A DNA stretch of 64,000 nucleotides, taken from NCBI RefSeq assembly GCF_036971445.1, contig NC_091470.1, positions 11,780,001 through 11,844,000 on the forward strand, in the 5' to 3' direction. The stretch comes from Narcine bancroftii (taxonomy: Eukaryota). The notes below the pieces were generated by a model, which was not told the origin of the DNA, made no database searches, and saw only the letters and a program-made list of their open reading frames with translations. Positions 2,893 to 62,584 of the stretch are shown piece by piece. The translations under genes were made by a program, and so were the position numbers. Within the stretch, counting starts at the first letter, position 1; each line of letters starts with the position of its first letter.

Positions 2893-2898
2893 TGTGAA

Positions 2899-6426: not shown

Positions 6427-6429
6427 CTA
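6355..6429 (-). promoter_or_regulatory. gag UAG readthrough signal with predicted H-type pseudoknot
   Basis: UAG-GGG-UGU, then stem1 CAGGGGUUCC(6420-6411)/GGAACCCCUG(6385-6376); loop GGGACCAA(6402-6395) pairs with UUGGUCCC(6362-6355). Confidence 0.8.
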
Positions 6430-7917: not shown

Positions 7918-7991
7918 TTTCCCACCTAGATCTGTTTATCGTTGCTGAGGACCCTCTCGCTCTGGACCCTACTCCCTTCCTCTCAGACGCC

Positions 7992-12385: not shown

Positions 12386-12577
12386 GGTGCTGGGTGTTTT
12401 GTGGGAAGTCGATGATGCAGGGTGGGGGTTGGTGTTACGGGGGTGGCACTCCAGGGGTGAGGATTATGGTGGGGGATAGCATCGTTACAGGTGTTGGAAA
12501 GTGAGTGTTATGGGGTGGGGGGGGGGGGGGTGATCCCACACCGGCTTGACCTCCGTGTCTGTGTCAGGCGCAGCATC

Positions 12578-13194
12578 ATGGATGAGCTGGCGCACGACCT
12601 GGCGTCTGCGCTGGATGAGACGTCGGAGCAGGCGCGGCTGGATGAAGAGGCATGGGAGGGCTCAGCACTGAGCCCACAGCAGCAGCAGCGCAGGCAGGCA
12701 CGCAAGCGGCGCGGCAGGAAACGGCGCTCGTTGTGCAGCCATGCACTGGAGCACAGCCGCTGCTTCAGCGAGGCGTCAGAGTCGAGCCAGGAGGAGGGGG
12801 GTGCCAGCGAGTCGGACCCTGACCGCGCCGTCGTCAAGCGTCTATGCTCCCTCAATGTGACGCTAAAGAAGCACCACGCCTGGCACGAGTCGGACTCCTT
12901 CACCGAGACAGCACCGGCGCAGCCGCTCCGCCGCCGGCGCAGGGTTAAGCGCAGCGGCTGCGTGGCCGCGGGCGATGTCAGTGCCACGCTGCAGAAGAAA
13001 CTGAAGGTATCGGAGGCCCGTCCCCCTCCCCACGTCCCCACATGCCCCCTGCGGGGGGGCTGCCAGCACAAGAAGCAGCGGCTCTCCCACTGGGGGTCCG
13101 GTGGCGCCTGGAGGGGGGCTCAGGGGGGGCACAAGGAAGGCGGGCACTGTGACCCCGAGGAGCACAAGGCATCTGACGAGAACATGACTGACAG
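12578..13194 (+). CDS. GPATCH2L: GPATCH2-like protein, coding exon 1 (exon starts 12568)
   Basis: MDELAHDLASALDETSEQ, RRQARKRRGRKRR, SEASESS, WHESDSFTE, SDENM motifs; acceptor tcag at 12567; donor AG|gtaggg, phase 2. Confidence 0.92.
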
Positions 13195-13697: not shown

Positions 13698-16600
13698 AGT
13701 GTGTGGGTATTGAAGGTGTGATTGTTGAGGATGTGTGGGGTGGTGGGTGATGTGTGTGGGTATTGAAGGTGTGTTTGTTGAGGATGTGTGGGGTGGTGGG
13801 TGATGTGTGTGGGTATTGAAGGTGTGTTTGTTGAGGATGTGTGGGGTGGTGGGTGATGTGTGTGGGTATTGAAGGTGTGATTGTTGAGGATGTGTGGGGT
13901 GGTGGGTGATGTGTGTGGGTATTGAAGGTGTGTTTGTTGAGGATGTGTGGGGTGGTGGGTGATGTGTGTGGGTATTGAAGGTGTTTTTGTTGAGGATGTG
14001 TGGGGTGGTGGGTGATGTGTGTGGGTATTGAAGGTGTGTTTGTTGAGGATGTGTGGGGTGGTGGGTGATGTGTGTGGGTATTGAAGGTGTGATTGTTGAG
14101 GATGTGTGGGGTGGTGGGTGATGTGTGTGGGTATTGAAGGTGTGATTGTTGAGGATGTGTGGGGTGGTGGGTGATGTGTGTGGATATTGAAGGTGTGATT
14201 GTTGAGGATGTGTGGGGTGGTGGGTGATGTGTGTGGGTATTGAAAGTGTGTTTGTTGAGGATGTGTGTGGTGGTGGGTGATGTGTGTGGGTATTGAAGGT
14301 GTGTTTGTTGAGGATGTGTGGGGTGGTGGGTGATGTGTGTGGGTATTGAAGGTGTGTTTGTTGAGGATGTGTGGGGTGGTGGGTGATGTGTGTGGGTATT
14401 GAAGGTGTGTTTGTTGAGGATGTGTGGGGTGGTGGGTGATGTGTGTGGGTATTGAAGGTGTGTTTGTTGAGGATGTGTGGTGTGGTGGGTGATGTGTGTG
14501 GGTATTGAAGGTGTGTTTGTTGAGGATGTGTGGGGTGGTGGGTGATGTGTGTGGGTATTGAAGGTGTGATTGTTGAGGATGTGTGGGGTGGTGGGTGATG
14601 TGTGTGGGTATTGAAGGTGTGATTGTTGAGGATGTGTGGGGTGGTGGGTGATGTGTGTGGATATTGAAGGTGTGATTGTTGAGGATGTGTGGGGTGGTGG
14701 GTGATGTGTGTGGGTATTGAAGGTGTGTTTGTTGAGGATGTGTGGGGTGGTGGGTGATGTGTGTGGGTATTGAAAGTGTGTTTGTTGAGGATGTGTGTGG
14801 TGGTGGGTGATGTGTGTGGGTATTGAAGGTGTGATTGTTGAGGATGTGTGGGGTGGTGGGTGATGTGTGTGGGTATTGAAGGTGTGTTTGTTGAGGATGT
14901 GTGGGGTGGTGGGTGATGTGTGTGGGTATTGAAGGTGTGATTGTTGAGGATGTGTGGGGTGGTGGGTGATGTGTGTGGGTATTGAAAGTGTGTTTGTTGA
15001 GGATGTGTGGGGTGGTGGGTGATGTGTGTGGGTATTGAAGGTGTGTTTGTTGAGGATGTGTGGGGTGGTGGGTGATGTGTGTGGGTATTGAAGGTGTGTT
15101 TGTTGAGGATGTGTGGGGTGGTGGGTGATGTGTGTGGGTATTGAAGGTGTGATTGTTGAGGATGTGTGGGGTGGTGGGTGATGTGTGTGGGTATTGAAGG
15201 TGTGATTGTTGAGGATGTGTGGGGTGGTGGGAGATGTGTGTGGGTATTGAAGGTGTGTTTGTTGAGGATGTGTGGGGTGGTGGGTGATGTGTGTGGGTAT
15301 TGAAAGTGTGTTTGTTGAGGATGTGTGGGGTGGTTGGTGATGTGTGTGGGTATTGAAGGTGTGTTTGTTGAGGATGTGTGGGGTGGTGGGTGATGTGTGT
15401 GGGTATTGAAGGTGTTTTTGTTGAGGATGTGTGGGGTGGTGGGTGATGTGTGTGGGTATTGAAGGTGTGTTTGTTGAGGATGTGTGGGGTGGTGGGTGAT
15501 GTGTGTGGGTATTGAAGGTGTGATTGTTGAGGATGTGTGGGGTGGTGGGTGATGTGTGTGGGTATTGAAGGTGTTTTTGTTGAGGATGTGTGGGGTGGTG
15601 GGTGATGTGTGTGGGTATTGAAGGTGTGTTTGTTGAGGATGTGTGGGGTGGTGCGTGATGTGTGTGGGTATTGAAGGTGTGATTGTTGAGGATGTGTGGG
15701 GTGGTGGGTGATGTGTGTGGGTATTGAAGGTGTTTTTGTTGAGGATGTGTGGGGTGGTGGGTGATGTGTGTGGGAATTGAAGGTGTGTTTGTTGAAGATG
15801 TGTGGGGTGGTGGGTGATGTGTGTGGGTATTGAAGGTGTGTTTGTTGAGGATGTGTGGGGTGGTGGGTGATGTGTGTGGGTATTGAAGGTGTGTTCGTTG
15901 AGGATGTGTGGGGTGGTGGGAGATGTGTGTGGGTATTGAAGGTGTGTTTGTTGAGGATGTGTGGGGTGGTGGGTGATGTGTGTGGGTATTGAAGGTGTGA
16001 TTGTTGAGGATGTGTGGGGTGGTGGGTGATGTGTGTGGGTATTGAAGGTGTGATTGTTGAGGATGTGTGGGGTGGTGGGTGATGTGTGTGGGTATTGAAG
16101 GTGTGATTGTTGAGGATGTGTGGGGTGGTGGGTGATGTGTGTGGGTATTGAAGGTGTGTTTGTTGAGGATGTGTGGGGTGGTGGGTGATGTGTGTGGGTA
16201 TTGAAGGTGTGTTTGTTGAGGATGTGTGGGGTGGTGGGTGATGTGTGTGGGTATTGAAGGTGTGTTTGTTGAGGATGTGTGGGGTGGTGGGTGATGTGTG
16301 TGGGTATTGAAAGTGTGTTTGTTGAGGATGTGTGGGGTGGTGGGTGATGTGTGTGGGTATTGAAGGTGTGTTTGTTGAGGATGTGTGGGGTGGTGGGTGA
16401 TGTGTGTGGGTATTGAAGGTGTGTTTGTTGAGGATGTGTGGGGTGGTGGGTGATGTGTGTGGGTATTGAAGGTGTGATTGTTGAGGATGTGTGGGGTGGT
16501 GGGTGATGTGTGTGGGTATTGAAGGTGTGTTTGTTGAGGATGTGTGGGGTGGTGGGTGATGTGTGTGGGTATTGAAGGTGTGTTTGTTGAGGATGTGTGG

Positions 16601-19600
16601 GGTGGTGGGTGATGTGTGTGGGTATTGAAGGTGTGTTTGTTGAGGATGTGTGGGGTGGTGGGAGATGTGTGTGGGTATTGAAGGTGTGTTTGTTGAGGAT
16701 GTGTGGGGTGGTGGGTGATGTGTGTGGGTATTGAAGGTGTGTTTGTTGAGGATGTGTGGGGTGGTGGGAGATTTGTGTGGGTATTGAAGGTGTGATTGTT
16801 GAGGATGTGTGGGGTGGTGGGTGATGTGTGTGCGTATTGAAGGTGTGTTTGTTGAGGATGTGTGGGGTGGTGGGAGATGTGTGTGGGTATTGAAGGTGTG
16901 TTTGTTGAGGATGTGTGGGGTGGTGGGTGATGTGTGTGGGTATTGAAGGTGTGATTGTTGAGGATGTGTGGGGTGGTGGGTGATGTGTGTGGGTATTGAA
17001 AGTGTGTTTGTTGAGTATGTGTGGGGTGGTGGGTGATGTGTGCGGGTATTGAAGGTGTGTTTGTTGAGGATGTGTGGGGTGGTGGGTGATGTGTGTGGGT
17101 ATTGAAGGTGTGATTGTTGAGGATGTGTGGGGTGGTGGGTGATGTGTGTGGGTATTGAAGGTGTGATTGTTGAGGATGTGTGGGGTGGTGGGTGATGTGT
17201 GTGGGTATTGAAGGTGTGTTTGTTGAGGATGTGTGGGGTGGTGGGTGATGTGTGTGGGTATTGAAGGTGTGATTGTTGAGGATGTGTGTGGTGGTGGGTG
17301 ATGTGTGTGGGTATTGAAGGTGTGTTTGTTGATGTGTGGGGTGGTGGGTGATGTGTGTGGGTATTGAAGGTGTGATTGTTGAGGATGTGTGGGGTGGTGG
17401 GTGATGTGTGTGGGTATTGAAAGTGTGTTTGTTGAGGATGTGTGGGGTGGTGAGTGATGTGTGTGGGTATTGAAGGTGTGTTTGTTGAGGATGTGTGGGG
17501 TGGTGGGTTATGTGTGTGGGTATTGAAGGTGTTTTTGTTGAGGATGTGTGGGGTGGTGGGTGATGTGTGTGGGTATTGAAGGTGTGTTTGTTGAGGATGT
17601 GTGGGGTGGTGGGTGATGTGTGTGGGTATTGAAGGTGTGATTGTTGAGGATGTGTGGGGTGGTGGGTGATGTGTGTGGGTATTGAAGGTGTTTTTGTTGA
17701 GGATGTGTGGGGTGGTGGGTGATGTGTGTGGATATTGAAGGTGTGTTTGTTGAGGATGTGTGGGGTGGTGGGTGATGTGTGTGGGTATTGAAGGTGTTTT
17801 TGTTGAGGATGTGTGGGGTGGTGGGTGATGTGTGTGGGTATTGAAGGTGTGATTGTTGAGGATGTGTGGGGTGGTGGGTGATGTGTGTGGGTATTGAAGG
17901 TGTGTTTGTTGAGGATGTGTGGGGTGGTGGGTGATGTGTGTGGGTATTGAAGGTGTGATTGTTGAGGATGTGTGGGGTGGTGGGTGATGTGTGTGGGTAT
18001 TGAAGGTGTGTTTGTTGAGGATGTGTGGGGTGGTGGGTGATGTGTGTGGGTATTGAAAGTGTTTTTGTTGAGGATGTGTGGGGTGGTGGGTGATGTGTGT
18101 GGGTATTGAAGGTGTGTTTGTTGAGGATGTGTGGGGTGGTGGGTGATGTGTGTGGGTATTGAAAGTGTGATTGTTGAGGATGTGTGGGGTGGTGGGTGAT
18201 GTGTGTGGGTATTGAAGGTGTGATTGTTGAGGATGTGTGGGGTGGTGGGTGATGTGTGTGTGGGTATTGAAGGTGTGATTGTTGAGGATGTGTGGGGTGG
18301 TGGGTGATGTGTGTGGGTATTGAAGGTGTGTTTGTTGAGGATGTGTGGGGTGGTGGGTGATGTGTGTGGGTATTGAAGGTGTGATTGTTGAGGATGTGTG
18401 GGGTGGTGGGTGATGTGTGTGGGTATTGAAGGTGTGTTTGTTGATGTGTGGTGTGGTGGGTGATGTGTGTGGGTATTGAAGGTGTGTTTGTTGAGGATGT
18501 GTGGGGTGGTGGGTGATGTGTGTGGGTATTGAAGGTGTGATTGTTGAGGATGTGTGGGGTGGTGGGTGATGTGTGTGGGTATTGAAGGTGTTTTTGTTGA
18601 GGATGTGTGGGGTGGTGGGTGATGTGTGTGGGTATTGAAGGTGTTTTTGTTGAGGATGTGTGGGGTGGTGGGTGATGTGTGTGGGTATTGAAGGTGTGTT
18701 TGTTGAGGATGTGTGGGGTGGTGGGTGATGTGTGTGGGTATTGAAGGTGTTTTTGTTGAGGATGTGTGGGGTGGTGGGTGATGTGTGTGGGTATTGAAGG
18801 TGTGTTTGTTGAGGATGTGTGGGGTGGTGGGTGATGTGTGTGGGTATTGAAGGTGTTTTTGTTGAGGATGTGTGGGGTGGTGGGTGATGTGTGTGGGTAT
18901 TGAAGGTGTGATTGTTGAGGATGTGTGGGGTGGTGGGTGATGTGTGTGGGTATTGAAGGTGTGTTTGTTGATGTGTGGGGTGGTGGGTGATGTGTGTGGG
19001 TATTGAAGGTGTGTTTGTTGAGGATGTGTGGGGTGGTGGGTGATGTGTGTGGGTATTGAAGGTGTGTTTGTTGAGGATGTGAGGGGTGGTGGGTGATGTG
19101 TGTGGGTATTGAAGGTGTGTTTGTTGAGGATGTGTGGGGTGGTGGGTGATGTGTGTGGGTATTGAAGGTGTGTTTGTTGAGGATGTGTGGGGTGGTGGGT
19201 GATGTGTGTGGGTATTGAAGGTGTGTTTGTTGAGGATGTGTGGGGTGGTGGGTGATGTGTGTGGGTATTGAAGGTGTGTTTGTTGAGGATGTGTGGGGTG
19301 GTGGGTGATGTGTGTGGGTATTGAAGGTATATTTGTTGAGGATGTGTGGGGTGGTGGGTGATGTGTGTGGGTATTGAAGGTGTGATTGTTGAGGATGTGT
19401 GGGGTGGTGGGTGATGTGTGTGGGTATTGAAGGTGTGTTTGTTGAGGATGTGTGGGGTGGTGGGTGATGTGTGTGGGTATTGAAGGTGTGATTGTTGAGG
19501 ATGTGTGGGGTGGTGGGTGATGTGTGTGGGTATTGAAGGTGTGTTTGTTGAGGATGTGTGGGGTGGTGGGTGATGTGTGTGGGTATTGAAGGTGTGTTTG

Positions 19601-20107
19601 TTGAGGATGTGTGGGGTGGTGGGTGATGTGTGTGGGTATTGAAGGTGTGTTTGTTGAGGATGTGTGGGGTGGTGGGTGATGTGTGTGGGTATTGAAAGTG
19701 TTTTTGTTGTGGATGTGTGGGGTGGTGGGTGATGTGTGTGGGTATTGAAGGTGTGTTTGTTGAGGATGTGTGAGGTGGTGGGTGATGTGTGTGGGTATTG
19801 AAGGTGTGTTTGTTGAGGATGTGTGGGGTGGTGGGTGATGTGTGTGGGTATTGAAGGTGTGTTTGTTGAGGATGTGTGGGGTGGTGGGTGATGTGTGTGG
19901 GTATTGAAGGTGTGTTTGTTGAGGATGTGTGGGGTGGTGGGTGATGTGTGTGGGTATTGAAGGTGTGTTTGTTGAGGATGTGTGGGGTGGTGGGTGATGT
20001 GTGTGGGTATTGAAGGTGTGTTTGTTGAGGATGTGTGGTGTGGTGGGTGATGTGTGTGGGTATTGAAGGTGTGTTTGTTGAGGATGTGTGGGGTGGTGGG
20101 TGATGTG
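13698..20107. repeat. 53-bp satellite, ~120 copies, almost C-free on the + strand
   Basis: Unit tgtgtgtgggtattgaaggtgt(gt/ga/tt)ttgttgaggatgtgtggggtggtgggtga; period 13761 to 13814. Confidence 0.97.
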
Positions 20108-20540
20108 AGTGCTGTTGGTTATCAGGTTATAAGGGCTGATATAGATGTTACATCTGATATGAAGGAGGTTAAAAGTGAAATGTTGAGATGTTCTTCAGAG
20201 GTGAAGGAAGTTAAAAGAGTTATTTTGGCTCTGCAGAGGGATAACGATGTAGATGTTCATAACGATAGAATTGAAAGGGTTGAAAATTCGGTACATTCTG
20301 AGAGAAACAGAAGAAAGAAATGATGCATAAGATGGGGATGTTGGAGAATCAAAGTAGATGGAATAATGTTTAGATTGTTGGACTTAAAGAAAATTTTGAA
20401 GGAATTGGCGACCCTGTGGAATTTTTTCGAAAATTGATTCCTGGAATCTTGGGTGAAGAAAACATTCCAAATGGAATTGAACTGGAAAGGGCTTTCCAGG
20501 GGAAGCCCCGGCCAAATCAGCCCATAGAGTTCTATTGATT

Positions 20541-23513
20541 CTTCTTTTCTTTGGCTTGGCTTCACGGACGAAGATTTATGGAGGGGGTAAAAAGTCCACG
20601 TCAGCTGCAGGCTCGTTTGTGGCTGACAAGTCCGATGCTGGACAGGCAGACACGATTGCAGCGGTTGCAGGGGAAAATTGGTGGGTTGGGGTTGGGTGTT
20701 GGGTTTTTCCTCCTTTGCCTTTTGTCAGTGAGGTAGGCTCTGCGGTCTTCTTCAAAGGAGGTTGCTGCCCGCCAAACTGTGAGGCGCCAAGATGCACGGT
20801 TTGAGGCGATATCAGCCCACTGGCGGTGGTCAATGTGGCAGGCACCAAGAGATTTCTTTAGGCAGTCCTTGTACCTTTTCTTTGGTGCACCTCTGTCACG
20901 GTGGCCAGTGGAGAGCTCGCCATATAACACGATCTTGGGAAGGCGATGGTCCTCCATTCTGGAGACGTGACCCACCCAGCGCAGCTGGATCTTCAGCAGT
21001 GTGGACTCGATGCTGTCGACCTCTGCCATCTCGAGTACTTCGACGTTAGGGATGTAAGCGCTCCAATGGACGTTGAGGATGGAGCGGAGACAACGCTGGT
21101 GGAAGCGTTCTAGGAGCCGTAGGTGGTGCCGGTAGAGGACCCATGATTCGGAGCCGAACAGGAGTGTGGGTATGACAACGGCTCTGTATACGCTTATCTT
21201 TGTGAGGTTTTTCAGTTGGTTGTTTTTCCAGACTCTTTTGTGTAGTCTTCCAAAGGCGCTATTTGCCTTGGCGAGTCTGTTGTCTATCTCATTGTCGATC
21301 CTTGCATCTGATGAAATGGTGCAGCCGAGATAGGTAAACTGGTTGACCGTTTTGAGTTTTGTGTGCCCGATGGAGATGTGGGGGGGCTGGTAATCATGGT
21401 GGGGAGCTGGCTGATGGAGGACCTCAGTTTTCTTCAGGCTGACTTTCAGGCCAAACATTTTGGCAGTTTCCGCAAAGCAGGACGTCAAGCGCTGAAGAGC
21501 TGGCTCTGAATGGGCAACTAAAGCGGCATCGTCTGCAAAGAGTAGTTCACGGACAAGTTTCTCTTGTGTACCGGATGTAAACAGCGTCTTCATTGTTGGG
21601 GTCTTTCATGGCTTGGTTCAGCATCATGCTGAAGAAGATTGAAAAGAGGGTTGGTGCCAGAACACAGCCTTGCTTCACGCCATTGTTAATGGAGAAGGGT
21701 TCAGAGAGCTCATTGCTGTATCTGACCCGACCTTGTTGGTTTTTGTGCAGTTGGATAATCATGTTGAGGAACTTTGGGGGACATCCGATGCGCTCTAGTA
21801 TTTGCCAAAGCCCTTTCCTGCTCACGGTGTCGAAGGCTTTGGTGAGGTCAACAAAGGTGATGTAGAGTCCTTTGTTTTGTTCTCTGCATTTTTCTTGGAG
21901 CTGTCTGAGGGCAAAGACCATGTCAGTAGTTCCTCTGTTTGCGCGAAAGCCGCACTGTGATTCTGGGAGAATATTCTCGGCGACACTAGGTATTATTCTA
22001 TTTAGTAGAATCCTCGCGAAGATTTTGCCTGCAATGGAGAGCAACGTGATTCCCCTGTAGTTTGAGCAGTCTGATTTCTCGCCTTTGTTTTTGTACAGGG
22101 TGATGATGGTGGCATCACGAAGATCCTGAGGCAGTTTACCTTGGTCCCAACAAAGCTTGAAAAACTCATGCAGTTTGGCATGCAGAGTTTTGCCGCCAGC
22201 CTTCCAGACTTCTGGGGGGACTCCATCCATACCTGCTGCTTTGCCACTTTTCAGTTGTTCGATTGCCTTATATGTCTCATCCAGGGTGGGAACCTCATCC
22301 AGCTCTAGCCTTAGGGGCTGTTGAGGGAGCTGGAGCAGGGCGGAATCTTGGACTGAGCGGTTGGCACTGAAAAGAGATTGGAAGTGTTCTGACCATCGGT
22401 TGAGGATGGAGATCTTGTTGCTGAGGAGGACTTTGCCGTCTGAGCTGCGCAGCGGGCTTTGGACTTGGGGTGAGGGGCCGTACACAGCCTTTAGAGCCTC
22501 GTAGAAACCCCTGAAGTCGCCAATGTCCGCGCTGAGCTGGGTTCGTTTGGCGAGGCTAGTCCACCACTCATTTTGGATCTCCCGGAGTTTGCGCTGAAGA
22601 TGGCTGCATGCGCGACGGAAGGCTTGTTTCTTCTCTGGACAGGACGGCTTTGTAAGGTGAGCCTGGTGGGAAGCTCGCTTCTTTGCCAGCAGCTCCTGGA
22701 TTTCCTGGCTGTTTTCGTCGAACCAGTCCTTGTTTTTCCTGGAGGAGAAGCCCAGTACCTCTTCAGTGGATTGCAGTATGGTAGTCTTCAACTGATCCCA
22801 GAGGGTTTCAGGGGACGGGTCCGTGAGGCGGATTGCATCGTTGAGCTTTGCTTTGAGGTTTGCCTGGAAGTTTCTTCTCGCTTCGTCTGACTGCAGGTTT
22901 CCAACATTGAACCTCTTTCTGGGGGCTTTATTGTTCTTGGGCTTTGGTTTGAAGTGAAGGTTGAGCTTGCAGCGAACCAGCCGGTGGTCAGTGTGGCATT
23001 CCGCGCTAGGCATGACCCTGGTGTGGAGCACATCTCGTTTGTCACTTTCTCGCACCAGGATGTAGTCCAGGAGGTGCCAGTGTTTGGATCGGGGATGCAT
23101 CCAGGTGGTCTTAAGGCTGTCCCTCTGCTGAAAAAGGGTGTTTGTAATGACAAGCCGCTGTTCTGCGCAGAGCTCCAACAGGAGGCGCCCATTGTCGTTG
23201 CACTTGCCGACGCCATGCTTGCCCAGGATTCCTGGCCAGGTTTCTGAGTCTTTGCCGACACGAGCGTTGAAGTCGCCCAGGATGACAACCTTGTCGGCTG
23301 TAGGGGTGCGTTGGATGAGGTTGCGCAGGTCGGTGTAGAACTTGTCCTTTTCTGCTGGTTCCGCCTGGAGGGTTGGAGCATAGACACTGATGAGGGTGAT
23401 GTGACGCTTGTTCTGAAGGGGGAGTCGCATGGACATGATTCGGTCCGAGAGGCCTGTCGGAAGGTTTTCGAGTTTGGAGGCAATGAAGCTCTTGACCATG
23501 AAGCCTACACCAG
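20541..23513 (-). mobile_element. 5'-truncated RTE-clade LINE (AviRTE-like), EN+RT, one internal deletion/frameshift at ~21570
   Basis: TSD ATTGATT at 20534-20540 and 23514-23520; GDFNARVG, GVKQGCVLAP, LLFADD; (GAA)-type 3' tail; two long ORFs 21547..23499 and 20601..21593. Confidence 0.93.
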
Positions 23514-24362
23514 ATTGATTATAGGTCTGCGATATCGAGACAAAGAGAAAATTTGAAGATTGGCTGTCCAGAAAGTAACACAGTGGTGGAGAGAAGGAAA
23601 CAATTCAATCCAGTGAAGGTGATTCTTTCGAAGAACGGCTAAAAGTTTACTTTTTTATATCCAACTACGTTGAAGGTGTTTTTGGTGAATGAATGAGCCA
23701 AGTTCTTTATGGGTGAAGAAGAACTACGTAGATTTACAGAATCACTTCCTACTATTAAAGAAGAGCAGCAGAATTGTTGAGTTTTAGTCTCTGACAAGAA
23801 TTTGAAAGAGTCGTGCTGTCGATCCAAATTACGTGAAGAAAGCTGGGCCACAGCAGATTGTAAGTTGTCGAAAGGAGTCTCAGTTCCATCTTCGATGGAA
23901 ACATCTTTAATTGGTGATGGTCAAGTTCATGTGGACCTTGAAGTGGCTAGTGATTTATTATTTTCTAAAGTGTAATTAATTAATGGTTCTCCCTTGGGGA
24001 GGGGGGGTTGGATGTTCTTCCTTCATATCGTGGTAGCTGCTGTGACCCGTATGGTGGAGGGAAATAGTGCATTATATTTGTATTCAGCACTTTTTGGCAT
24101 TTTTTATAGTTTAATTATTAATTTTTTTGTTTGGTTATTAATGGATTTTTCTTTTTAAGGGCCAGAGATGCGCACAGGAGTCCATTTGAGTTGATAGAGA
24201 GAGAAATGGGGGAGAACAGGATTGGAAGAGATTTTGATTTGGGATAATGGATGATAAAAATAAATTAATTTTTTTAGTTTTAATGTAAATAGGATAAATA
24301 GTACAATTAAAAGTATTTTTTTTTAATTATATGAAAAAGATGAAGGTTGATGTTATATATAT

Positions 24363-26644: not shown

Positions 26645-29600
26645 TTTGGGAAGCTACGATGAAGGAGACTAACGACCACCATGTTGGAGGTTCACAACGA
26701 CCGTTTATTTCAAATCCCCCGCGCGCCCCTTTAAGGGCAGCGTGAGCTCCGCCCCCGCACGGCCGGTGACGTCATCACGTCTGCCTGAGGCGTGCGCTGG
26801 GCTAAAGCCACGAGGCAAGGAGGTCCCCCAATGGCGCCATCTTCTCGTGGCTGCCCCACCATGTGGTGGTACAAGCGGGGCCAGTTCTTCACGAGTGTGT
26901 GCGCCGCCACACAACCCCCACCAGAACTGGCTTACGCGTCCCGCCACTTGGGCGGATGGCCTTCGCACTTGGGCTGAGCCATTTGAACTGGTTAAGTGAG
27001 GTCCAGGTGCACCGTAAACAGTTTACTTTTACCCCCAATGTCCAACATGAAAGTCTTGTCGGACTGCTGCAGGACTCTGTACGGATCTTCATAAGGGCGC
27101 TGAAAGGGCAGTGTGCGTGCCACACCGGATGAAGATGAATTTGGCCACATACCAGCTCTTTGGGCAGTCGGGCTGATTGGGCACCGTGGTGCATAAGAGG
27201 CGGGGGGGCCAGCGAGGCGAGTTTGTTGTGGAGATCTGCCAACAGGGTTGGGTGGACAGTCGTGGAGTCTGTTTCCGGGCCAAAGAACTCACCAGGTAGC
27301 GACAGTGGCATGCCATACACCAACTCTGTAGACGATACTTGCAGATCCTCCTTCGGAGCTGACTTGATGCTGAGGAGGACCCAGAGCAACTCATCTGCCC
27401 ATCCGAGACTGGTGAGGTGGGCCATGAAGGCCGACTTTAGGTGGCGGTGAAATCACTCCACCAGGCCATTAGCTGCGGGTGATAAGCCGTGGTGTGGTGG
27501 AGCTTAACCCCCAGCAGGCTCGCCAACTGAGCGCCTCTGTCACTGGTGATGTGCGCCAAGACTCCAAACCTGGCGATCCAGTGAGCAAGGATACCTTACT
27601 GCAGCTGTACAGGGCCTTGGTGAGACCCCACCTGGAGTATTGTGTGCAGTTTTGGTCACCTTATCTAAGGAAGGATGTTCTTGCAATGGAGGGAGTGAAA
27701 TGTTCTTGCAATGGAGGGAGTGCAGAGGCGATTCACCAGGCTGATACCTGGAATGGCAGGAATGACTTAGGAGGAAAGATTGCGCAAATTGGGATTGTAC
27801 TCGCTGGAGTTTAGAAGATTGAGAGGGGATCTCATAGAGACATATAAAATTCTGGCAGGACTGGACAGAGTGGATGCAGATGGGATGTTTCCAAGGATGG
27901 GAAAATCCAGAACCCGGGGCCATGGTTTGAGGATAATAGGCAAACCATTTAGGACCGAGATGAGGAGGAATTTCTTGACCCAGAGGGTGGTGAATCTGTG
28001 GAATTCATTGCCACAGAGGGCAGTAGAGGCAGGTTCATTAAATATATTTAAGAGGGAATTAGATCTATTTCTTCAGTATAAGGGTATTAAAGGTTACGGA
28101 GAGAAGGCGGGGACGGGGTACTGAACTTTAAGATCAGCCATGATCTCGTTGAATGGTGGAGCAGGCTCGAAGGGTCGAATGACCTACTCCTGCTCCTATC
28201 TTCTATGTTTCAAGCAAGTTCCTGGCACATGTTTTGGCAGAAGTATCCTTGATGGGGTTGGCTTCTGGCCACCTTGTGGTCTGGTCGACCACCATCAGCA
28301 GGTAGCGCGCCTCTCTGGACATTGGTAGGGGGCCCACGATATCAACATGTATGTGCTGGAACCTTTTGACCGCCAGGTCGAACTGTTAAATCGGGGCCTG
28401 CATTTGCCGATGGACCTTGGTCTGGCACTGTGTGCAGGTCTTTGCGATTTGGGCTACCTCCTTCTTGAGCCTGTGTCAGACAAACTGCTCTGCCACCATC
28501 CGCACCGATGTCTTGACTGAGGGGTATGCGAGATGGTGGACCATGCTGAAGACCCATAACCTCCATTACGGCAGGACTACTGGGCGTGGCGAACCGGAGG
28601 AAACGTCACAGAGCAGCGTGTCCGGGCTGTCCGGCAAACGGATGTCCTGGAGGCGGAGCCCTGTAATGGCGGAACGGTGTGCCTGCATTTCTGTGTCTTC
28701 CCTCTGTGCCTGTGCCAACTGGGTGTAGTTTAGGCTGGGGGCAAGGCTGTGGATTGCGGTCAAGTGAGTGCATCCACCACGACATTGTCTCTACTTGCTC
28801 TGTGCTGGATGTCGGTGGTGAACTCTGACACGTAGCAGAGGTGGTGCTGCTGGCGAGCTGACCAGAGATCTTTGGCCATCGCGAAGGCTTGCGTGAGTGG
28901 CTTGTGATCGGTGAATGGCCTGCCCTCCGGGAAGTACCAGAAGTGTCGGATGGCCAGGTACAGGGCCAGGTGCTTCCTGAAGAAAGCCAGCGGGCGCCAC
29001 TGGCCATCAACCCACTGCTCGAGCACGCCCCCAACAGCCGTGGCCGAGGCATTTACCAAGACCGCGGTGTGGGCCTCTGGGCACGGGTGGGCCAATAGTG
29101 TGGCGCTCGCCAGTGCATCCTTTGTTGCTGTGAAGGTGCCCTACGCCTCTTCTGACCAAACTAGGATTTTTGTCTTTTGCAGCGATCATCAAGAATAACA
29201 GCCACAGATGCGGGCTGCACCGGGGATGAACGATGGTAAAAGTTCACCATACCAACAAACTCATGCAGGCCCTTGAGGGTGGTGGGTTTTGGAAACTGGC
29301 GCATGGCTGCTACTTTTTCTGGTGCTGGAGCGGCTCCGGCTGCCGAGATGGTGTGTCTTAGGAACTGCAGTGTCTGCCTGCCGAACTGGCACTTGGCCAT
29401 GTTGACCGTGAGGCCAAATTCTGCCAAATAGGCAAACAGGATGTGGAGATGGACTTTGTGCTCCTCTTGGTCATGGCTGGGAATAAGAATGTCATCAAGA
29501 TATATGTACACAAAGTCCAGATCCCTACCCACTGTGTCCATCAGACACTGGAAAGTCCAAAGGGCATCCGCAAGAATTCAAATAGCCTGAACGGGGTGAC

Positions 29601-31360
29601 GATCGTGGTCTTACCGATGTCTTCAGGATGGACCGGGATCTGATGGTAGCCCCATACCAGGTTGACTTTCGAAAAGACCTGGGCGCCGTGCAGGTTTGCT
29701 GTGAAGTCATGAATGTATGGGATGGAATACCTGTCCGGCGTAGTCACATTGTTCAAGCGCCGATTATCCCTGCAGGGTTGCCAGCCCCCGGAAGACTTGG
29801 GGACCATGTGGAGAGTGGAGGCCCAGGGACCGTCGGACCAGCGGATGATCCCCAATTTTTGCAGGCGAGAGAACACCTCTTTGGCCAGCTGTAGCTTCTC
29901 TGGCGGTAGTCGCCTGGCCTTGGCATGCAGCAGGGGCCTTGCGTGGAGATGTGATGATAGACTCCGTGCTGGGGCATGGCGGCGGTGAACTGTGGCTGCA
30001 GGATGGTGGGAAATTCATCGAGTATGCTGGAATACGTCTCTGAGAGCGGTGATGGCGGCTTGCAGACTTCCGTGGCATCGAGGCAGACTGAGACTAATCG
30101 TTTGCCCTTCGCATCCACCAGCAGGCCATGTGCTCTGAGGACGTCGGCCCCCAACAGCGCAGTACCCACTGAGGCCAGCATGAACCTCCAGCAGAACTTG
30201 TCTTTCCCAATCCGGATCTGCACCCTTCAGATGTTGAAGGTTTAGATGGCGGAACTGTTGGCTGCACACAGGGCAGGACCCCGTGCTCGGGTACGGGTCT
30301 CAAGGGCGGTCGGGGGTAAGATGCTCAGTTCAGCTCTGGTGTCCACCAGGAAACGCCAGCCGGTGGACTTATCAATCACATGCAGGAGGTGGCTGGCCAC
30401 ACTGCCACACTGTTTTCCTGAAAAGTACAGGGCTGCCTGCCCTTATGAGCTTGAGCCCCCCAGCGTTGATGGTAGAAGCACCAGGTGGGGTGGTGCTCCT
30501 CCGGCTTGTGCTTGTGGGGGGGTGGGGGGGGGGGCTGTGACCAGCTGGGCCCTGGGCGGGTGACATGGCAGAGGGCGGCTTCATTTTCCATTTTGGTTCG
30601 CCAGAGGGTGTCTACTCGGGCCATGACTCACCGTGGATCCATGAAGTCCACGTCTGCCAGCAGGAGGTGAATGTCTTCGGGCATCTGCTCCAAGAAGATC
30701 TGGCGGAACAAGAAGCAGGGCTTGTGATCCTCCGCCAGCATCTTGTCCATGAGGTGTTCTGTCTCCTAGCCCGTCTAGATGCAGAAGTCTTGAGGCGCGC
30801 TGCTGTGGGGAGAGACCGAATGTGCCAAGAAGGAGGTTCTTGAGTGCAGGGAATTTACCCTCGGCCGGCGGGTCGTGGAGGAGGTCGTCCATCCTGGCCG
30901 CGGTCTCTTCATCGAGTATGGTCACGACGTGGTAAAACATCATGGCATCTGAAGAAATGTTGCTGAGGTGAAACTTCGCCTCTGCCTGCCCAAACCACGT
31001 ACGTGGGCGATGTGTCCAGAAGGGGGGCAGTTTCACTGCGACGGCATTGATCTCGGCGGGATCCATACTGGGAGGCCAGAAAAACATCTGGACTTGGGGT
31101 CACCAATGTAGTGGCAACTACAATGAAGGAGACTAATGACCACCACATTGGAGGTTCTCAGTGACCATTTATTTCAAATCCCACGTGCGCCCCTTTAAGG
31201 GCAGTGTGAGCTCCGGCGTGGGCGGTGACGTCTGATGTGCGCATGCTGGGCTAAAGCCACAAGGCAAGGAGGTCCACCGATGGCGCCATCTTCTCATGGC
31301 TGCCCCACCATGTGGCAGTACAAGCGGGGCCGGTTCATCATGAGTATGTGCGCCGCCACA
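26645..31360 (-). mobile_element. Degenerate Ty3/Gypsy LTR retrotransposon, probably CsRn1 lineage
   Basis: LTRs 26645-26911 and 31107-31360; TSD ACCT (26641-26644 and 31361-31364); PBS TGGTGACCCC (tRNA-Trp-like); gag AVKLPPFW and CFYHQRWG (CHCC-type); RT YLDDIL; many frameshifts. Confidence 0.9.
27584..28212 (+). mobile_element. CR1 3' fragment nested in the Gypsy integrase region
   Basis: LYRALVRPHLEYCVQFWSP...RNFLTQRVVNLWNSLP; TTCTATGT-type tail; possible TSD AGCAAG. Confidence 0.9.
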
Positions 31361-33136: not shown

Positions 33137-33885
33137 CGCACCATTAACATGGTGTTCTGTTCCACTGAGGCCAGCTGTGTGTGTGCGCGTGCCATTTTGT
33201 GTGTGAGTGCGTGTGTGTGTGCGCGCGCGTGCCATTTTGTGTGTGAGTGCGTATGTGTGTGTGCGCGCGCGCACCATTTTGTGTGTATGTGTGCACGCAT
33301 GTGTGCGCCATTTTGCTTGTGTGCGCGCGCGCGCGCATATTTTGACACTCAGGTTTCTTACACTGAGGCCAGCTGTGTGTATGCGTGTGCCATTGCGTGC
33401 GTGTGCCTGTCTGTCTGTCTGTCTGTCTGTCTGCGGCCCATTAACACTGTGCCCTGTTCCAGTGAGGCAAGCAGCGTGTGTGTGTGTGTGTGACTGTGTG
33501 TGTGTGTGTGTGTGTCTGTCTGTCTGTCTGACTGTCTGCGGCCCATTAACTCTGTGCCCTGTTCCAGTGAGGCCAGCAGTGTGTGTGTGTGTGTCTGCGG
33601 CCCATTAACTCTGTGCCCAGTTCCAGTGAGGCCAGCAGTGTGTGTCTGTGTCAGTCTGCGACCCATTAACTCTGTGCCCTTTTCCAGTGAGGCCAGCAGT
33701 GTGTGTGTGTGTGTCTGTCTACGGCCCATTAACTCTGTGCCCTGTTCCAGTGAGGCCAGCAGAGTGTGTGTGTGAGCTTCCGTCTGTGTGTCTGTCTGTC
33801 TGTCTGTCTGTCTGTCTGCGGCCCATTAACTCTGTGCCCTGTTCCAGTGAGGCCAGCAGAGTGTGTGTGTGAGCTTCCGTCTGTG

Positions 33886-33918
<33 letters not shown>

Positions 33919-34524
33919 GCAGCCCATTAACTCTGTACCCTGTTCCAGTGAGGCCAGCAGTGAGTGTGTGTGTGTGTGTCTGTCTGCGGCCCATTAACAC
34001 TGTGCCCTGTTCCAGTGAGACCAGCAGTGTGTGTGTGTGTCTGTCTGCGGCCCATTAACTCTGTGCCCTGTTCCAGTGAGGCCAGCAGTGTGTGTGTGTG
34101 TGTCTGTCTGCGGCCCATTAACTCTGTGCCCTGTTCCAGTGAGGCCATCAGTGTGTGTGTGTGTCTGTCTGAAGCCCATTAACACTGTGCCCTGTTCCAG
34201 TGAGGCCAGCAGTGTGTGTGTGTGTGTCTGTCTGCAGCCCATTAACACTGTGCCCTGTTCCAGTGAGGCCAGCAGTGTGTTTGTGTGTCTGTCTGCAGCC
34301 CATTAACTCTGTGCCCTGTTCCAGTGAGGCCAGCAGTGTGTGTGTGTGTCTGTCTGCAGCCCATTAACTCTGTGCCCTGTTCCAGTGAGGCCAGCAGTGT
34401 GTGTGTGTGTGTGTCTGTCTGCAGCCCATTAACTCTGTGCCCTGTTCCAGTGAGGCCAGCAGTGTGTGTGTGTGTCTGTCTGCAGCCCATTAACTCTGTG
34501 CCCTGTTCCAGTGAGGCCAGCAGC
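33137..34524 (+). repeat. Tandem array of the GPATCH2L exon-3 3' splice-site cassette with (TG)n/(TCTG)n spacers
   Basis: Unit gcccattaactctgtgccctgttccag|tgaggccagcag; 16 AG-bearing copies, the last being the real acceptor at 34511, plus 2 degenerate upstream CAC copies. Confidence 0.92.
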
Positions 34525-34570
34525 GTCTGCAGCAGTGATGGACTCTTCACCAATGATGAAGGACGACAAG
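34512..34570 (+). CDS. GPATCH2L: GPATCH2L coding exon 2
   Basis: (S)EASSVCSSDGLFTNDEGRQ(G), matching the conserved SSVCSS..GLFTNDEGRQG motif; phase 2 to phase 1; donor gtaggg. Confidence 0.93.
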
Positions 34571-35266
34571 GTAGGGCCTTACACAACGTGGTGGGGAGAG
34601 GGGCAGAATTGTAGGATTGGGGCCTCGGGCAGCCCTGCTATGAAGTGGATGTGCCAGGCTGTTGTGCTGGGTGTTCTGTGAAGGGGTTTTCCAGGAGGGG
34701 GCTGATCCGGGAAAGGGTTGTGTCTGCTGGGGGTTTTATGTGGGTGGGATTTTCTGGTAGGATATATTGACCCTGGGGCTATTTTCTGGATGACACGTGT
34801 TTGCGGGGTATGAGCCTGGGTGTTGGGATTTCCAGAGGTCTGTAAGCCCGGAGGTGGTTTTTGGTGGACGGGCAATCATGGTGGGATGTCTGAGAGATGT
34901 AGAGCGAGGGTGGTGGGTTGTCTGGGGGATGGGTGATTGTGGAAGGGTATTTGAGGATGGGTGAGCGTAGGTTTGGGCTTTCTAGGCTATGGGTTAGTGT
35001 GGGGGACGAATGAGTGTGGAGGGTGTTCTAGGAATGGGTGATCGTGGGGGTGTGGTATCTGGGGGACTGGTGAGCGTGGGGGGGGGTTTCTCGTGATGGG
35101 TGAGCGTGTGGGGGTTTCTGGGGACAGATGAGCATGGGGGCATGTTTGGGGATGTGGGTGAGATATCTGGTGGATGGGTGATTGTGGGGGTAAGGTATCT
35201 GGCAGATGGCCGAGTGCGGTGGGTATTTGCTGAGAAATCACCACCTCTCTCACTGCCCCTCCCCAG

Positions 35267-35443
35267 GTGATGATGAGCAGAGTGACTGGTTCTATGAGGG
35301 GGAATGTGACCAGGGTTTCCGGGTGCCCAATCTGCGGCTACACCGGGAAAGTTCACCAGTGATACCAGTGACCGAGGTGGGGCCAACAGTGACCACCTAC
35401 CCCTCACCACCATTCCTGCTGCCATCCCGACCCGCCCAGAGAG
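35267..35443 (+). CDS. GPATCH2L: GPATCH2L coding exon 3
   Basis: DDEQSDWFYEGEC...FLLPSRPAQR; ccccag acceptor, gtgagt donor; 177 nt. Confidence 0.93.
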
Positions 35444-35479
35444 GTGAGTGGGAGAGTGGCCTGTGCTGCAATTGGCTGA

Positions 35480-36325
<846 letters not shown>

Positions 36326-36412
36326 CCCTCATCCCTGATGGAGCTGGCAGTAAGGTGATGGGCAGAGTGGCCCCAGGAGCGGTGTGGACTAACCTGGTTT
36401 GTGTGCCGACAG

Positions 36413-36480
36413 GAGGGTCCAGTGGGAGCCGTGCCAAGCGACAGAGTGGACCACTTTGGACAGGACCCCTTCCAGAGGGA
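36413..36480 (+). CDS. GPATCH2L: GPATCH2L coding exon 5
   Basis: ACTAAC branch point, gacag acceptor, EGPVGAVPSDRVDHFGQDPFQR, gtgagt donor; phase 0 to phase 2. Confidence 0.8.
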
Positions 36481-36782
36481 GTGAGTGCCCCGTGGTGCGT
36501 CCCACCCCCCAGCAGTGCCCCACCCTCCCCGGCTGGAGGGAGGTGGGCTGTGGGGTGGGGTCATGTCGGGTTGCGGTAGGGCCTAGGGTGGTGAGGGGTG
36601 TGGAGGGGCTGGGGGTTGGGGTGGAGTGGGTGTAGGGGAGGGGCTGGGGGAGTAGGTGGTGTGAGGGAGAAGGTCGGGTTGGGGTGGTGGGGTGAGTTTG
36701 GGGGAAGTGTGGGGGAGTAGAGGGTGGCTGGAGGAGTTGTGCTCCCCCAACCCCAGTTGCTGACTATGGGTGGTGTGTTCAG

Positions 36783-36861
36783 GCTGCGCAGGAACGTTTG
36801 CATGCGGGGTCCGTACCGGGAGTGGAGTGTGCTGAGCCGCCTGCAGCCCCTGCCTCTAGGG
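36783..36861 (+). CDS. GPATCH2L: GPATCH2L coding exon 6 (poorly conserved)
   Basis: ttcag acceptor and G|gtaagt donor; 79 nt bridges phase 2 to phase 0 exactly; peptide not recognised. Confidence 0.6.
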
Positions 36862-37329
36862 GTAAGTACGGTTTGGCTGCATTTATGGGGGGGGGAATGT
36901 GGGAGGAGCGGGCAAGTGAGTTGTGGGGGCCGAGGGGTGTTGATATAGGGATTGGGATGTTTAGGAGGAGGTTGGGGTTGTAGCGGGGAGGGGATGTGGG
37001 GGAGGAGACGTTGGGGTTGTAGTAGGGAAGGGGATGTGGGGGAGGTGGTTGGGGTTGTAGGGATGAGTGGGTTTTGGGGGGAGGAGATGTTGGGGTTGTA
37101 GGAGGGAAGGGGATGTGGGGGAGGAGACATCAGGGTTGTAGGTGGGCGGTGCAGGGACCATGGCCGTACAGTGCTGTGGAGGGACCCAGCCATCGATAGG
37201 CAGGGGTCTCCCTGGTTCATGTTGGAGGGTTAAGGTGGAACTGGGGGGGGTCTTGGTCAGGGGGGGGTCTTGGTCGGGGGGGGGGGTTCACAATCACCTT
37301 TCTGTGACTCCTCCTCTCTGTGCCCACAG

Positions 37330-37415
37330 TTTAACCCATTGATGCCTCTCTACCCACTGGATGTCCTGACCGACGGCGCCCACAGGAGGGGTAACCCCCA
37401 GCACAGCCGGTCACG
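37330..37415 (+). CDS. GPATCH2L: GPATCH2L coding exon 7
   Basis: FNPLMPLYPLDVLTDGAHRR, similar to mammalian [20 protein letters not shown]; cacag/gtgagt. Confidence 0.9.
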
Positions 37416-37598
37416 GTGAGTGCCACACCCCACCTCCCTTTTCTCTCTTCCCCCATCTCCCAATCCCCCCTCCAAACGCACGGAACCCTTCAGGCAGAGG
37501 GTCCCAGGCCTTGTCTCTACGGCTGGTGCTGTTAGACCACACTGTTGGGCGGGGAGATCATCACTGCTGCCATTGATTTGGCCATTCTCTCCTCTCAG

Positions 37599-37684
37599 GC
37601 AGACGAGTGTGCACCTGGGGTCGCTGTGTACGAGTGGCGTGAAGCGCAGGCGCAAGACTTCCACCATGTCCAACCCTGGAACAG
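37599..37684 (+). CDS. GPATCH2L: GPATCH2L coding exon 8
   Basis: QTSVHLGSLCTSGVKRRRK; tctcag/gtaggg; phases compatible. Confidence 0.85.
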
Positions 37685-38021
37685 GTAGGGTCTGGGACTG
37701 ATATGGGGCCGGCTCGGGAGAATGGGGCAGTGGGGTTAGTGTGTATCTGACAAGGAGTGGTGGGGGAAAATCAGTGTGGGGACAGACATTGGGGGGGATC
37801 AGTGCGGGGACGGACTCAGTGGGGGGATCAGTGTGGGGACGGACACGAAGGAAGGATCAGTGCGGGGACGGACATGGGGTGGGGGGGATCAGTGTGGGTT
37901 GGACATGGGGCGGGGGGATCAGTGCAGGGATGGACACGGGGTGGGGATGGGGGTGGTGAGATGCCTAGTACTTGTTGTAGTGGGGCAGTATTCGTGTACT
38001 GTGGTGCTCTCTTTGTTGCAG

Positions 38022-38206
38022 CCGCCTCCTCCCACATTGCCGAGACTGAGGGGCACAGCCCGGATTGTGCTGCCAACAAGACGTCAAGCTGCATGGAATG
38101 GGCGGAGGGTGAGAACAGGGCTGGGTCGGGAGCTGAGAGTCCTGGGCCTGGCCAGCCTGTCAGTGCCGTGATGTCTCTGCCGCATGTGGCAGGGACTCAG
38201 TTGTGA
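38022..38206 (+). CDS. GPATCH2L: GPATCH2L last coding exon (spliced CDS 1437 nt, 478 aa)
   Basis: ttgcag acceptor, phase 1 compatible, TGA at 38204-38206; candidate ATTAAA at 38822-38827. Confidence 0.7.
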
Positions 38207-38954
38207 GGAGTTGTGTATGTATATCACCCTCTGTGGGAGGCCCCCTGCTCTGTCCTCCCCGATTCGGAGCGCTGGCCTAGACCTGGGCAATGCACAGTTC
38301 CACTGGCTGCCTCACTGAGCTGTGTGGACTCCAGCCATCAGGGTGGATTGGCAGGGGCCAGCACATGTGAAATCTTTCCCTCACAATCCCAGGCTTTTCT
38401 CTGGCTGGGCCAGCCTGCATTGGAATGGGAACAGCATTGTTACGCCTGTGATGCATCTCGCTGTCCCACTGCTGTGTTGTAATTGTCTGAGGACTCCATG
38501 TACAGGAGGTTTGAGTCAGAGTCCAGGTTCATTCTGTGATACAGACAGTGAGTAAATATGTGCCGAGGTGTGTTGCAGCATCATGCAGTGTTACACCCAC
38601 TGCTAATCCAAGTGTATTCATGTCGTCAGTCTGTGGCAAGTGTGGAGATGCCCTTCTTTAGATTAGTTCCACTGTTTCTGTGTGACGTCTCGACGCCCTC
38701 TGTCAAGTGTTCGTGTTTTCCCTGTTCCTGCCACTTGCATTGTTAACTTCATCTCTGACATTACTCGGTGCTTTCTGAAAGGGAATCTATTCACCTGAGT
38801 AAGGTTTTAAGAGAATTTTAAATTAAAATATTTTGATATTTTCCAGCTATTTGCTGTCCAGTGAATTGTCTGTTTCTTCGGTACTGGTGAGTTTCATCTG
38901 TGGGCAGGGCCTGAGTACATGTGGTGTCTCCCAAATCCTCAACGTGGTCTAGGT

Positions 38955-52642: not shown

Positions 52643-54437
52643 GTGACCCTGACCCTGACCCTGTCCCTGCCCCTGACCCTGACCCTGCCCCTGTCCCTGC
52701 CTCTGTCCCTGACCCTGACCCTGTCCGTGCCCCTGACCCTGACCCTGACCCTGACCCTGACCCTGACCCTGTCCGTGTCCCTGACCCTGTCCCTGCCTCT
52801 GTCCCTGACCCTGCCCCTGACCCTGCCTCTGCCCCTGACCCTGTCCGTGTCCCTGCCCCTGACCCTGCCCCTGCCCCTGACCCTGCCCCTGACCTTGCCT
52901 CTGCCCCTGACCCTGTCCGTGTCCCTGACCCTGTCCCTGCCCCTGAACTTCCCCTGCCCCTGACCCTGTCCCTGACCCTGCCCCTGTCCCTGACCCTGCC
53001 CCTGACCCTGTCCCTGCCTCTGTCCCTGACCCTGCCCCTGACCCTGTCCGTGTCCCTGACCCTGTCCCTGCCTCTGCCCCTGACCCTGACCCTGTCCGTG
53101 TCCCTGTCCCTGCCTCTGTCCCTGCCCCTGACCCGTGTCCCTGACCCTGTCCCTGCCCCTGACCCTGACCCTGACCCTGCCCCTGACCCTGCCTCTGCCC
53201 CTGACCCTGTCCGTGTCCCTGACCCTGTCCCTGACCCTTCCCCTGCCCCTGACCCTGCCCCTGACCCTGCCTCTGTCCCTGACCCTGCGCCTGACCCTGA
53301 CCCTGTCCGTCCCTGACCCTGTCTCTGCCTCTGTCCCTGACCCTGACCCTGTCTGTGTCCCTGCCCCTGCCCCTGACCCTGCCCCTGACCCTGACCCTGA
53401 CCCTGTCCGTGTCCCTGACCCTGTCCCTGACCCTTCCCCTGCCCCTGACCCTGCCCCTGCCCCTGACCCTGCCTCTGCCCCTGACCCTGTCCGTGTCCCT
53501 GACCCTGTCCCTGACCCTTCCCCTGTCCCTGACCCTGCCCCTGACCCTGACCCTGTCCGTGTCCCTGACCCTGCCGCTGACCCTGTCCGTGTCCCTGACC
53601 CTGCCCCTGTCCCTGACCCTGACCCTGACCCTGCCCCTGCCCCTGACCCTGCCTCTACCCCTGACCCTGTCCGTCCCTGACCCTGACCCTGTCCGTGTCC
53701 CTGACCCTGCCCCTGACCCTGCCTCTGTCCCTGACCCTGACCCTGTCCGTGTCCCTGACCCTGACCCTGTCCCTGCCTCTGTCCCTGACCCTGCCCCTGA
53801 CCCTGTCCGTGTCCCTGACCCTGTCCCTACCTCTGCCCCTGTCCCTGACCCTGACCCTGCCTCTGTCCCTGACCCTGACCCTGTCCCTGCCTCTGTCCCT
53901 GACCCTGCGCCTGACCCTGACCCTGTCCGTGTCCCTGACCCTGTCCCTGCCTCTGTCCCTGACCCTGCCCCTGACCCTGACCCTGTCTGTGTCCCTGCCC
54001 CTGACCCTGCCCCTGCCCCTGACCCTGCCTCTGCCCCTGACCCTGTCCGTGTCCCTGACCCTGTCCGTCCCTGACCCTGACCCTGTCCGTGTCCCTGACC
54101 TTGTCCCTGACCCTTCCCCTGCCCCTGACCCTGCCCCTGACCCTGACCCTGCCTCTGCCCCTGACCCTGTCCGTGTCCCTGACCCTGTCCGTCCCTGACC
54201 CTGACCCTGTCCGTGTCCCTGACCTTGTCCCTGACCCTTCCCCTGCCCCTGACCCTGCCCCTGACCCTTCCCCTGCCCCTGACCCTGCCTCTGACCCTGA
54301 CCCTGACCCTGTCCGTGTCCCTGACCCTGACCCTGCCTCTGTCCCTGACCCTGCCCCTGACCCTGTCCGTGTCCCTGACCCTGACCCTGACCCTGACCTT
54401 GACCCTGACCCTGCCTCTGTCCCTGACCCTGACCCTC
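52643..54437. repeat. Hexamer array (CCCTGA/CCCTGT/CCCTGC/CCGTGT), ~1.8 kb, telomere-variant-like TCAGGG
   Basis: Read directly from the sequence. Confidence 0.95.
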
Positions 54438-60330: not shown

Positions 60331-60759
60331 CGAGTGAGCACAGTTCAGTGGGATACACAAGACAGACAGTTATACACAGATCCGAGTGCTGACTCCCACT
60401 GTGCAGCCCACACAAAAGCTGCAGAATCTCAGCAGGTGGGAAGGGGAGATGAAAAGGAGGTGAGAATTAATATTGGGAGAGGGAGGGGAAGGGGTGGGGA
60501 GAGATCTGGATGAAAGGAGACATGAGAGGGAGTGTCTGAGGGAAGTGGAGGAGTGGAGGGGAAGTCATGTTGTGTGAAGGACAACTCTTCACCTCGCACT
60601 CTACTGCCTCCTCCACCTATGGTGGTCTGGTTCGAGGGGCTCTGTCTGGGTTCGGGGGAGGGTTGTTCAGGGGGGACTTCCCCTGTGGGTCGTCCCATCC
60701 ATCTGCCCTGTCTGGTCACACTGACTTGTGCCCTCTCTCCACAGCTCGCTGGTTGGCTG

Positions 60760-62511: not shown

Positions 62512-62584
62512 GTGAGGAAAGGGAGGCTCCATCAGAACCGATCCCCATCTTAGAGGGAGTCCACCTATCCGAACTCGTAACACA

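Follow-up and report, generated by a model that had tools for sequence, protein, structure and literature searches.

Sixteen near-identical acceptors before one GPATCH2L exon of the ray Narcine bancroftii, likely a neutral mirage-like minisatellite

When an intron ends in a run of near-identical acceptors, which of them is used, and is the run a regulatory device or a tolerated accident? The question is raised by a window of 64,000 nucleotides from Narcine bancroftii (the whole stretch of DNA analysed here), in which an earlier, sequence-only reading had proposed that the spliceosome must choose the last of 16 acceptors preceding an exon of GPATCH2L, possibly through a microsatellite-tuned splicing switch. 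We consider that the array is a tandem amplification of the GPATCH2L intron/exon junction, probably of the neutral kind known as "mirage" minisatellites, rather than a regulatory device.

The assignment of the gene to GPATCH2L is confirmed by the window exon 12578-13192, which is 100% identical to the Narcine bancroftii protein of that name; all 120 matches listed for this exon (of 451) are GPATCH2L or unnamed, and a Pfam search of exon 2 gave no match. Nine window exons reproduce protein P0001 exactly, which also bears out the donor at 13194|13195 and the exon at 34512-34570 proposed earlier. Only one of the 17 splice sites in this map is duplicated, namely the acceptor at 34512.

12568..13194, plus strand: first coding exon (exon 2), with its ATG at 12578; according to the exon map, a phase-2 intron of 21.3 kb begins at its donor, 13195.
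34486..34511, plus strand: signals of the true acceptor (branch-like motif, pyrimidine tract and AG), with a predicted, consensus-inferred branch A at 34493 (-19).
34512..34570, plus strand: true 59-nt exon (..SEASSVCSSDGLFTNDEGRQG), with its donor at 34571, found in spliced contigs of 4/4 runs and conserved in homologs.
35267..38208, plus strand: remaining seven coding exons, without duplicated boundary; their first two junctions were seen in RNA contigs.

The donor of the long intron (13195) reads GTAGGG. U12-type donors start with GTATCC or ATATCC, and a minor (U12) intron was thus ruled out. The peptide at the junction has a constant length in 10/10 shark and ray proteins from the search and in 9/9 further members of the ray cluster, and an insert at this point is absent from all 19 proteins (one from Narcine bancroftii and 18 others). 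Unrelated inserts occur at the junction in 6 of the 120 listed homologs, all from birds or mammals, and one homolog lacks the motif. Among the matches listed in the literature on GPATCH2L splicing, nothing concerned the 34512 junction.

The array, whose last copy is the true acceptor, and its older neighbours comprise the following features.

33137..33177, plus strand: oldest degenerate copy 1, with an exon-like start at 33166 and AC in place of the acceptor AG.
33335..33375, plus strand: old degenerate copy 2, with an exon-like start at 33364 and a CAC end, more diverged than copy 1.
33434..34523, plus strand: array of 16 acceptor cores (15 decoys and the true site).
33949..33965, plus strand: decoy with a donor-like GTGAGT at 33960, 11 nt past its AG, a candidate frameshifting microexon with no evidence of use.

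A core scan of 33137-34570 returned 18 matches, 16 of which are AG acceptor copies with exon-like starts from 33463 to 34512, each consisting of a branch-like motif followed, past the AG, by 12 exon bases. The 15 decoy starts named earlier and the true start at 34512 were recovered exactly, with an AG before each, and the two most 5' copies, previously described as bearing CAC instead of CAG, are the two older ones at 33166 and 33364. A decoy unit of 59-105 nt is thus made of 12 exon nucleotides, (TG)n(TCTG)n, the branch-like motif, a short pyrimidine tract and AG; Tandem Repeats Finder (TRF) reported a period of 61 over 33517-34523 (16.0 copies, score 1183). When a 41-nt core (-29..+12) is compared with that of the true site, the decoys at 34325, 34386 and 34451, the three nearest, show no difference and the remaining 12 show 1-3, so that identity declines from 41/41 beside the exon to the loss of AG in the two oldest copies. 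Of the 10 most 5' copies, 9 share a G-for-A variant.

The unit is private to this locus. A degenerate 26-letter core pattern matched the 3.3-Gb genome 16 times, always within the GPATCH2L array (reversed control, 0), and a DNA search of the genome with the unit found one extra match only, a paralogous exon on contig C9 with a single acceptor, which we take to be GPATCH2-like. Confined in this way, the unit derives from the gene's own splice junction, and a dispersed satellite or mobile element was rejected on the same ground. The repeat unit spans the exon-intron boundary of its host gene, and AG is kept in 15 of the 17 extra copies, AC standing in its place in the oldest two, which may stem from one event. 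Substitutions in the decoy AGs are too few for a test of selection. All 16 AG copies read AG then TG; recursive (ratchet) splice sites were therefore discarded, the AG-GT motif being absent from every one of them. The donor-like GTGAGT at 33960 has a crude consensus score of 5.5 of 9, versus 6.5-7.5 for three real donors.

The array could have originated from a short duplication across the acceptor, in a region of high minisatellite turnover, and subsequent slippage or unequal exchange would have expanded it, most recently next to the exon, with (TG)n slippage varying the length of the units. Exon +14..+22 matches intron -37..-29 over 9 nt (shuffle p 0.003, post hoc), a weak lead towards an origin by microhomology; against it, the decoys depart from the exon at +12, ahead of the match, and CpG decay accounts equally well for the G-for-A variant.

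What would follow if a decoy were used can be read from the frame. The earlier arithmetic was right in that the decoys at -61, -187, -248 and -311 shift the frame, and that at -126 is in frame and open, adding 42 Cys/Val-rich residues. In all, 4 of the 15 decoys are in frame (-126, -372, -435 and -885), and a single path is open, the other 14 meeting a stop inside the array.

34386..34511, plus strand: sole in-frame open decoy path (-126), encoding 42 aa, of which 8 are Cys and 10 Val.

The 14 stops lie more than 635 nt before the last junction. Since, by the standard rule, stops that far before the last junction are expected to trigger nonsense-mediated decay (NMD), rare use of these decoys would mostly be removed. 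The 42-aa insert of the open path was absent from the RNA contigs (4 runs) and from the database proteins examined. With the same donor, the exons starting at the four nearest decoys would measure 120, 185, 246 and 307 nt, lengths that by themselves do not rule these decoys out.

Evidence on actual splicing comes from contigs of four runs (four samples) of one study, used out of five given by a search for runs that contain the locus. None of the runs listed was on record as RNA; that label was the tool's guess for the four, and their contigs proved to be spliced. In each run, one contig skips both downstream introns (GT..AG) and has a loose 5' end at 34509 equal to the end of exon 2. Bases 34509-34511 being common to donor and acceptor, the exon 2 junction is to 34512. 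Exon 2, 34512 and the next two junctions are therefore joined in 4/4 runs, and the expectation that the last of the 16 acceptors is chosen is upheld. The major GPATCH2L form is spliced normally, the contigs being blind to minor forms. The contig reference covered 34410-35650, with only about two array units inside. Within it, decoy 34451 is where any decoy junction should have mapped, and exon 2 letters stood at that decoy on none of the loose ends listed for the four runs, in a data type that drops rare variants and a table of pieces that omitted 6 of 20 records. Mapping of contigs on the donor side listed two intron contigs and no exon 2 contig, and is uninformative on junctions.

Array-derived contigs were also present in 4/4 runs, at a depth of 7-45 versus 52-96 for the spliced contig, contig depth being a poor measure; as their source, unspliced intron and decoy use cannot be told apart. 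X1 and X3, the runs where their depth was high, also have intron contigs next to the donor; the two runs with low depth have none. This fits unspliced background from about 15 collapsed copies.

These contigs bear on the alternative that survives best, in which the nearest decoys would be used at a low, unregulated rate, mostly ending in NMD, and in which copy number or (TG)n length would lower GPATCH2L output in the manner of a splicing QTL. Such leakage is rather unlikely, although several observations agree with it: the three nearest decoys match the true site throughout the core, array-derived contigs occur in every run, and the position of the stops in 14 of the 15 paths means that their products would be depleted from steady-state RNA. 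No decoy junction is among those listed in the contigs, however, and the array depth tracks the intron contigs of X1 and X3 as unspliced background would, within the limits of depth as a measure.

If the array is instead neutral, it offers a clean natural experiment on acceptor choice. The sixteenth acceptor prevails over fifteen that match it in branch motif, tract and AG, and the decision must therefore come from the sequence past the AG, namely exon body and donor. What sets the true site apart from a decoy is found beyond +12: decoys run into 6-13 TG dinucleotides per 30 nt, versus 3 in the true exon, and the true site runs into a purine-rich exon with a donor 59 nt away. At +13, the true exon has C and most decoys have T. 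As the last copy alone possesses a full exon and a donor, exon definition across the 21-kb intron would commit the last site, and the array would be tolerated because its decoys, which keep the branch motif, tract and AG, have just 12 exon bases before (UG)n and no exon body. UG-binding proteins may add repression, as a possible helper of this exon-dependent commitment. Masking of the decoys by RNA structure was rejected: the segment 34300-34600 folds worse than its shuffles (z +2.82; 99/100 shuffles fold at least as well).

Boundary-spanning repeats of this kind have precedents. In amphioxus, mirage minisatellites occur in Adh3, troponin C, the globins BflGb6 and BflGb9, and PGBD5, and leave regular splicing intact (PMC3087553, PMC3902484). 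The GPATCH2L array shares with them head-to-tail copies of an intron/exon boundary, kept splice signals, undisturbed regular splicing, turnover of copies and divergent edge units. In BflGb6, the intron 3' end and the 5' part of the exon are likewise repeated, with 3-6 copies there versus 16 in GPATCH2L. Unlike the amphioxus hosts, that of the present array is a vertebrate, and its units, known here from one assembly, hold a (TG)n(TCTG)n microsatellite that varies their length and frame. We found no paper on boundary-spanning minisatellites in cartilaginous fish in a search whose coverage left out most subscription journals.

Better dissected in function is the 37-bp VNTR of human F7 intron 7, with 5-9 identical donor sites of which only the exon-adjacent one is used, in-frame pseudo-sites being unused too (PMC1557585). 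In both genes, the edge unit of the VNTR spans the real splice site, but in F7 it is the donor side and in GPATCH2L the acceptor side, with a branch motif; F7 was dissected with 50 constructs, whereas the GPATCH2L array is known from sequence and RNA contigs. A choice decided downstream would be the acceptor-side mirror of the F7 model. In the human CBS variant 844ins68, the intron/exon 3' junction is duplicated and the distal copy reportedly selected, with help from the intervening sequence (as cited in PMC1802585); CBS has one extra copy and G runs, against 15 copies and UG tracts in GPATCH2L. Finally, one study of beta-globin constructs in which the 3' site was duplicated, with 14, 55 or 205 exon nt after it, reports use of the distal site only (PMC5389562). 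There too an upstream acceptor with a truncated exon loses, and the 14 nt are close to the 12 nt of GPATCH2L, but those constructs are artificial, with two sites and a short intron, and were spliced inefficiently in vitro.

A second acceptor-spanning array lies in the neighbouring gene NEK9.

L098 8183-8514 (G000:C5), minus strand: 10-copy array, its unit mostly 34 bp long, about 58 kb to the right of the GPATCH2L array.

Its unit, unrelated to that of GPATCH2L, combines the end of a NEK9 intron with about 11-13 bases of the exon that follows, and three NEK9 database isoforms follow the last array copy. It is the sole short-unit boundary array in NEK9 as mapped (1010 of 1031 aa in 24 pieces, 23 exons, three of them with less than 520 nt of flank). 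What is new is this second, 10-copy acceptor array; mirages as a kind were already described in amphioxus. The next NEK9 exon is triplicated whole with its flanks (L098 7705-5910, minus strand, spacing 780 and 857 bp), and the database protein includes each of the three copies; its motif occurs once in most shark and ray NEK9 proteins checked, and twice in Pristis.

Around the locus, 19% of 464 kb is minisatellite, versus 3.6% at kinesin loci. None of 90 kinesin-domain matches with flanks (of 122 in the genome) had duplicated edges, some of these edges being domain ends rather than exon boundaries; the same test found the GPATCH2L control. Further boundary arrays thus number 1 in 31 local exons versus 0/90 elsewhere, a local enrichment that is suggestive only. 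A de novo scan of the 464 kb recovered the control and four other candidates, two of which were inspected: one was the NEK9 array taken from the wrong strand and the other had no sign of an exon. The scan is insensitive, as it missed the NEK9 array as an acceptor because of its weak tract. Together, the GPATCH2L and NEK9 arrays suggest that mirages are not a lancelet peculiarity and arise where minisatellite turnover is high.

A broader proposal would have acceptor arrays recur at the minisatellite-rich chromosome ends of this ray, with the (UG)n of GPATCH2L silencing 15 functional decoys, allele length or the level of a UG-binding protein tuning output via NMD, and one TG gain letting the nearest decoy give an in-frame insert. 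We hold this combination to be quite improbable. The narrower switch inherent in the sequence-only reading, in which TDP-43 or CELF would silence the decoys and their release, or (TG)n slippage, would redirect splicing towards NMD or the 42-aa Cys/Val-rich insert, is very unlikely. It draws on the richness in TG within 30 nt after each decoy, on the repression of CFTR exon 9 through TDP-43 by UG tracts at its acceptor (PMC12171016), and on arithmetic, since a single TG gain turns the last 61-nt unit into one of 63 nt, in frame. However, the branch point of the true acceptor is preceded by the same (UG)n tract as those of the decoys, and an upstream repressor of the CFTR type therefore cannot discriminate between the true site and the decoys. 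Reading frame acts only after a decoy is used. The array looks young and still turning over, and the NEK9 array has the same layout without UG tracts, so that the pattern can be explained without UG repression. With no decoy junction listed and no insert in the spliced contigs or in the 19 shark and ray proteins, the microsatellite-tuned switch is not borne out, and the array is better read as a neutral amplification.

That the assembly mis-expanded a short duplication is extremely unlikely: the count of 16 comes from the assembly alone, and short contigs collapse the units and leave the copy number unconfirmed, but the units carry distinct, ordered substitutions, and the RNA-run contigs contain tandem units with unit-to-unit junctions and the 5'-type variant (A>G at 34484, 3/4 runs), which argues against an artefact. 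Boundary arrays can also mislead gene annotation and read mapping; the neutral array favoured here would gain in importance only if use of the decoys could be measured or varied with allele length.

Several other features of the window are recorded here; labels of the mobile elements were given by inspection or from translations.

1192-7935, minus strand: endogenous-retrovirus-like element just upstream of GPATCH2L, with four long ORFs in the order gag, protease/pol, pol, env (labels from translations).
13699-20111: tandem array in the same 21-kb intron, about 500 nt past the donor, with 121 copies (97% identity) of a 53-bp unit; its plus strand has next to no C, with a GC skew near 1.0.
20600-23600 and 26900-31100, minus strand: the 21-kb intron also holds an RTE-like LINE, which has long ORF pieces, and a gypsy-like LTR element (labels by inspection).
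52644-54436: simple array of about 300 copies of TGACCC.
58338-60316: simple array of 109 copies of an 18-bp unit.
60526-62550, plus strand: long ORF whose middle is repeat-expanded and whose end resembles a C2HC-type zinc finger; we take it to be probably ZC2HC1C, by synteny with NEK9.
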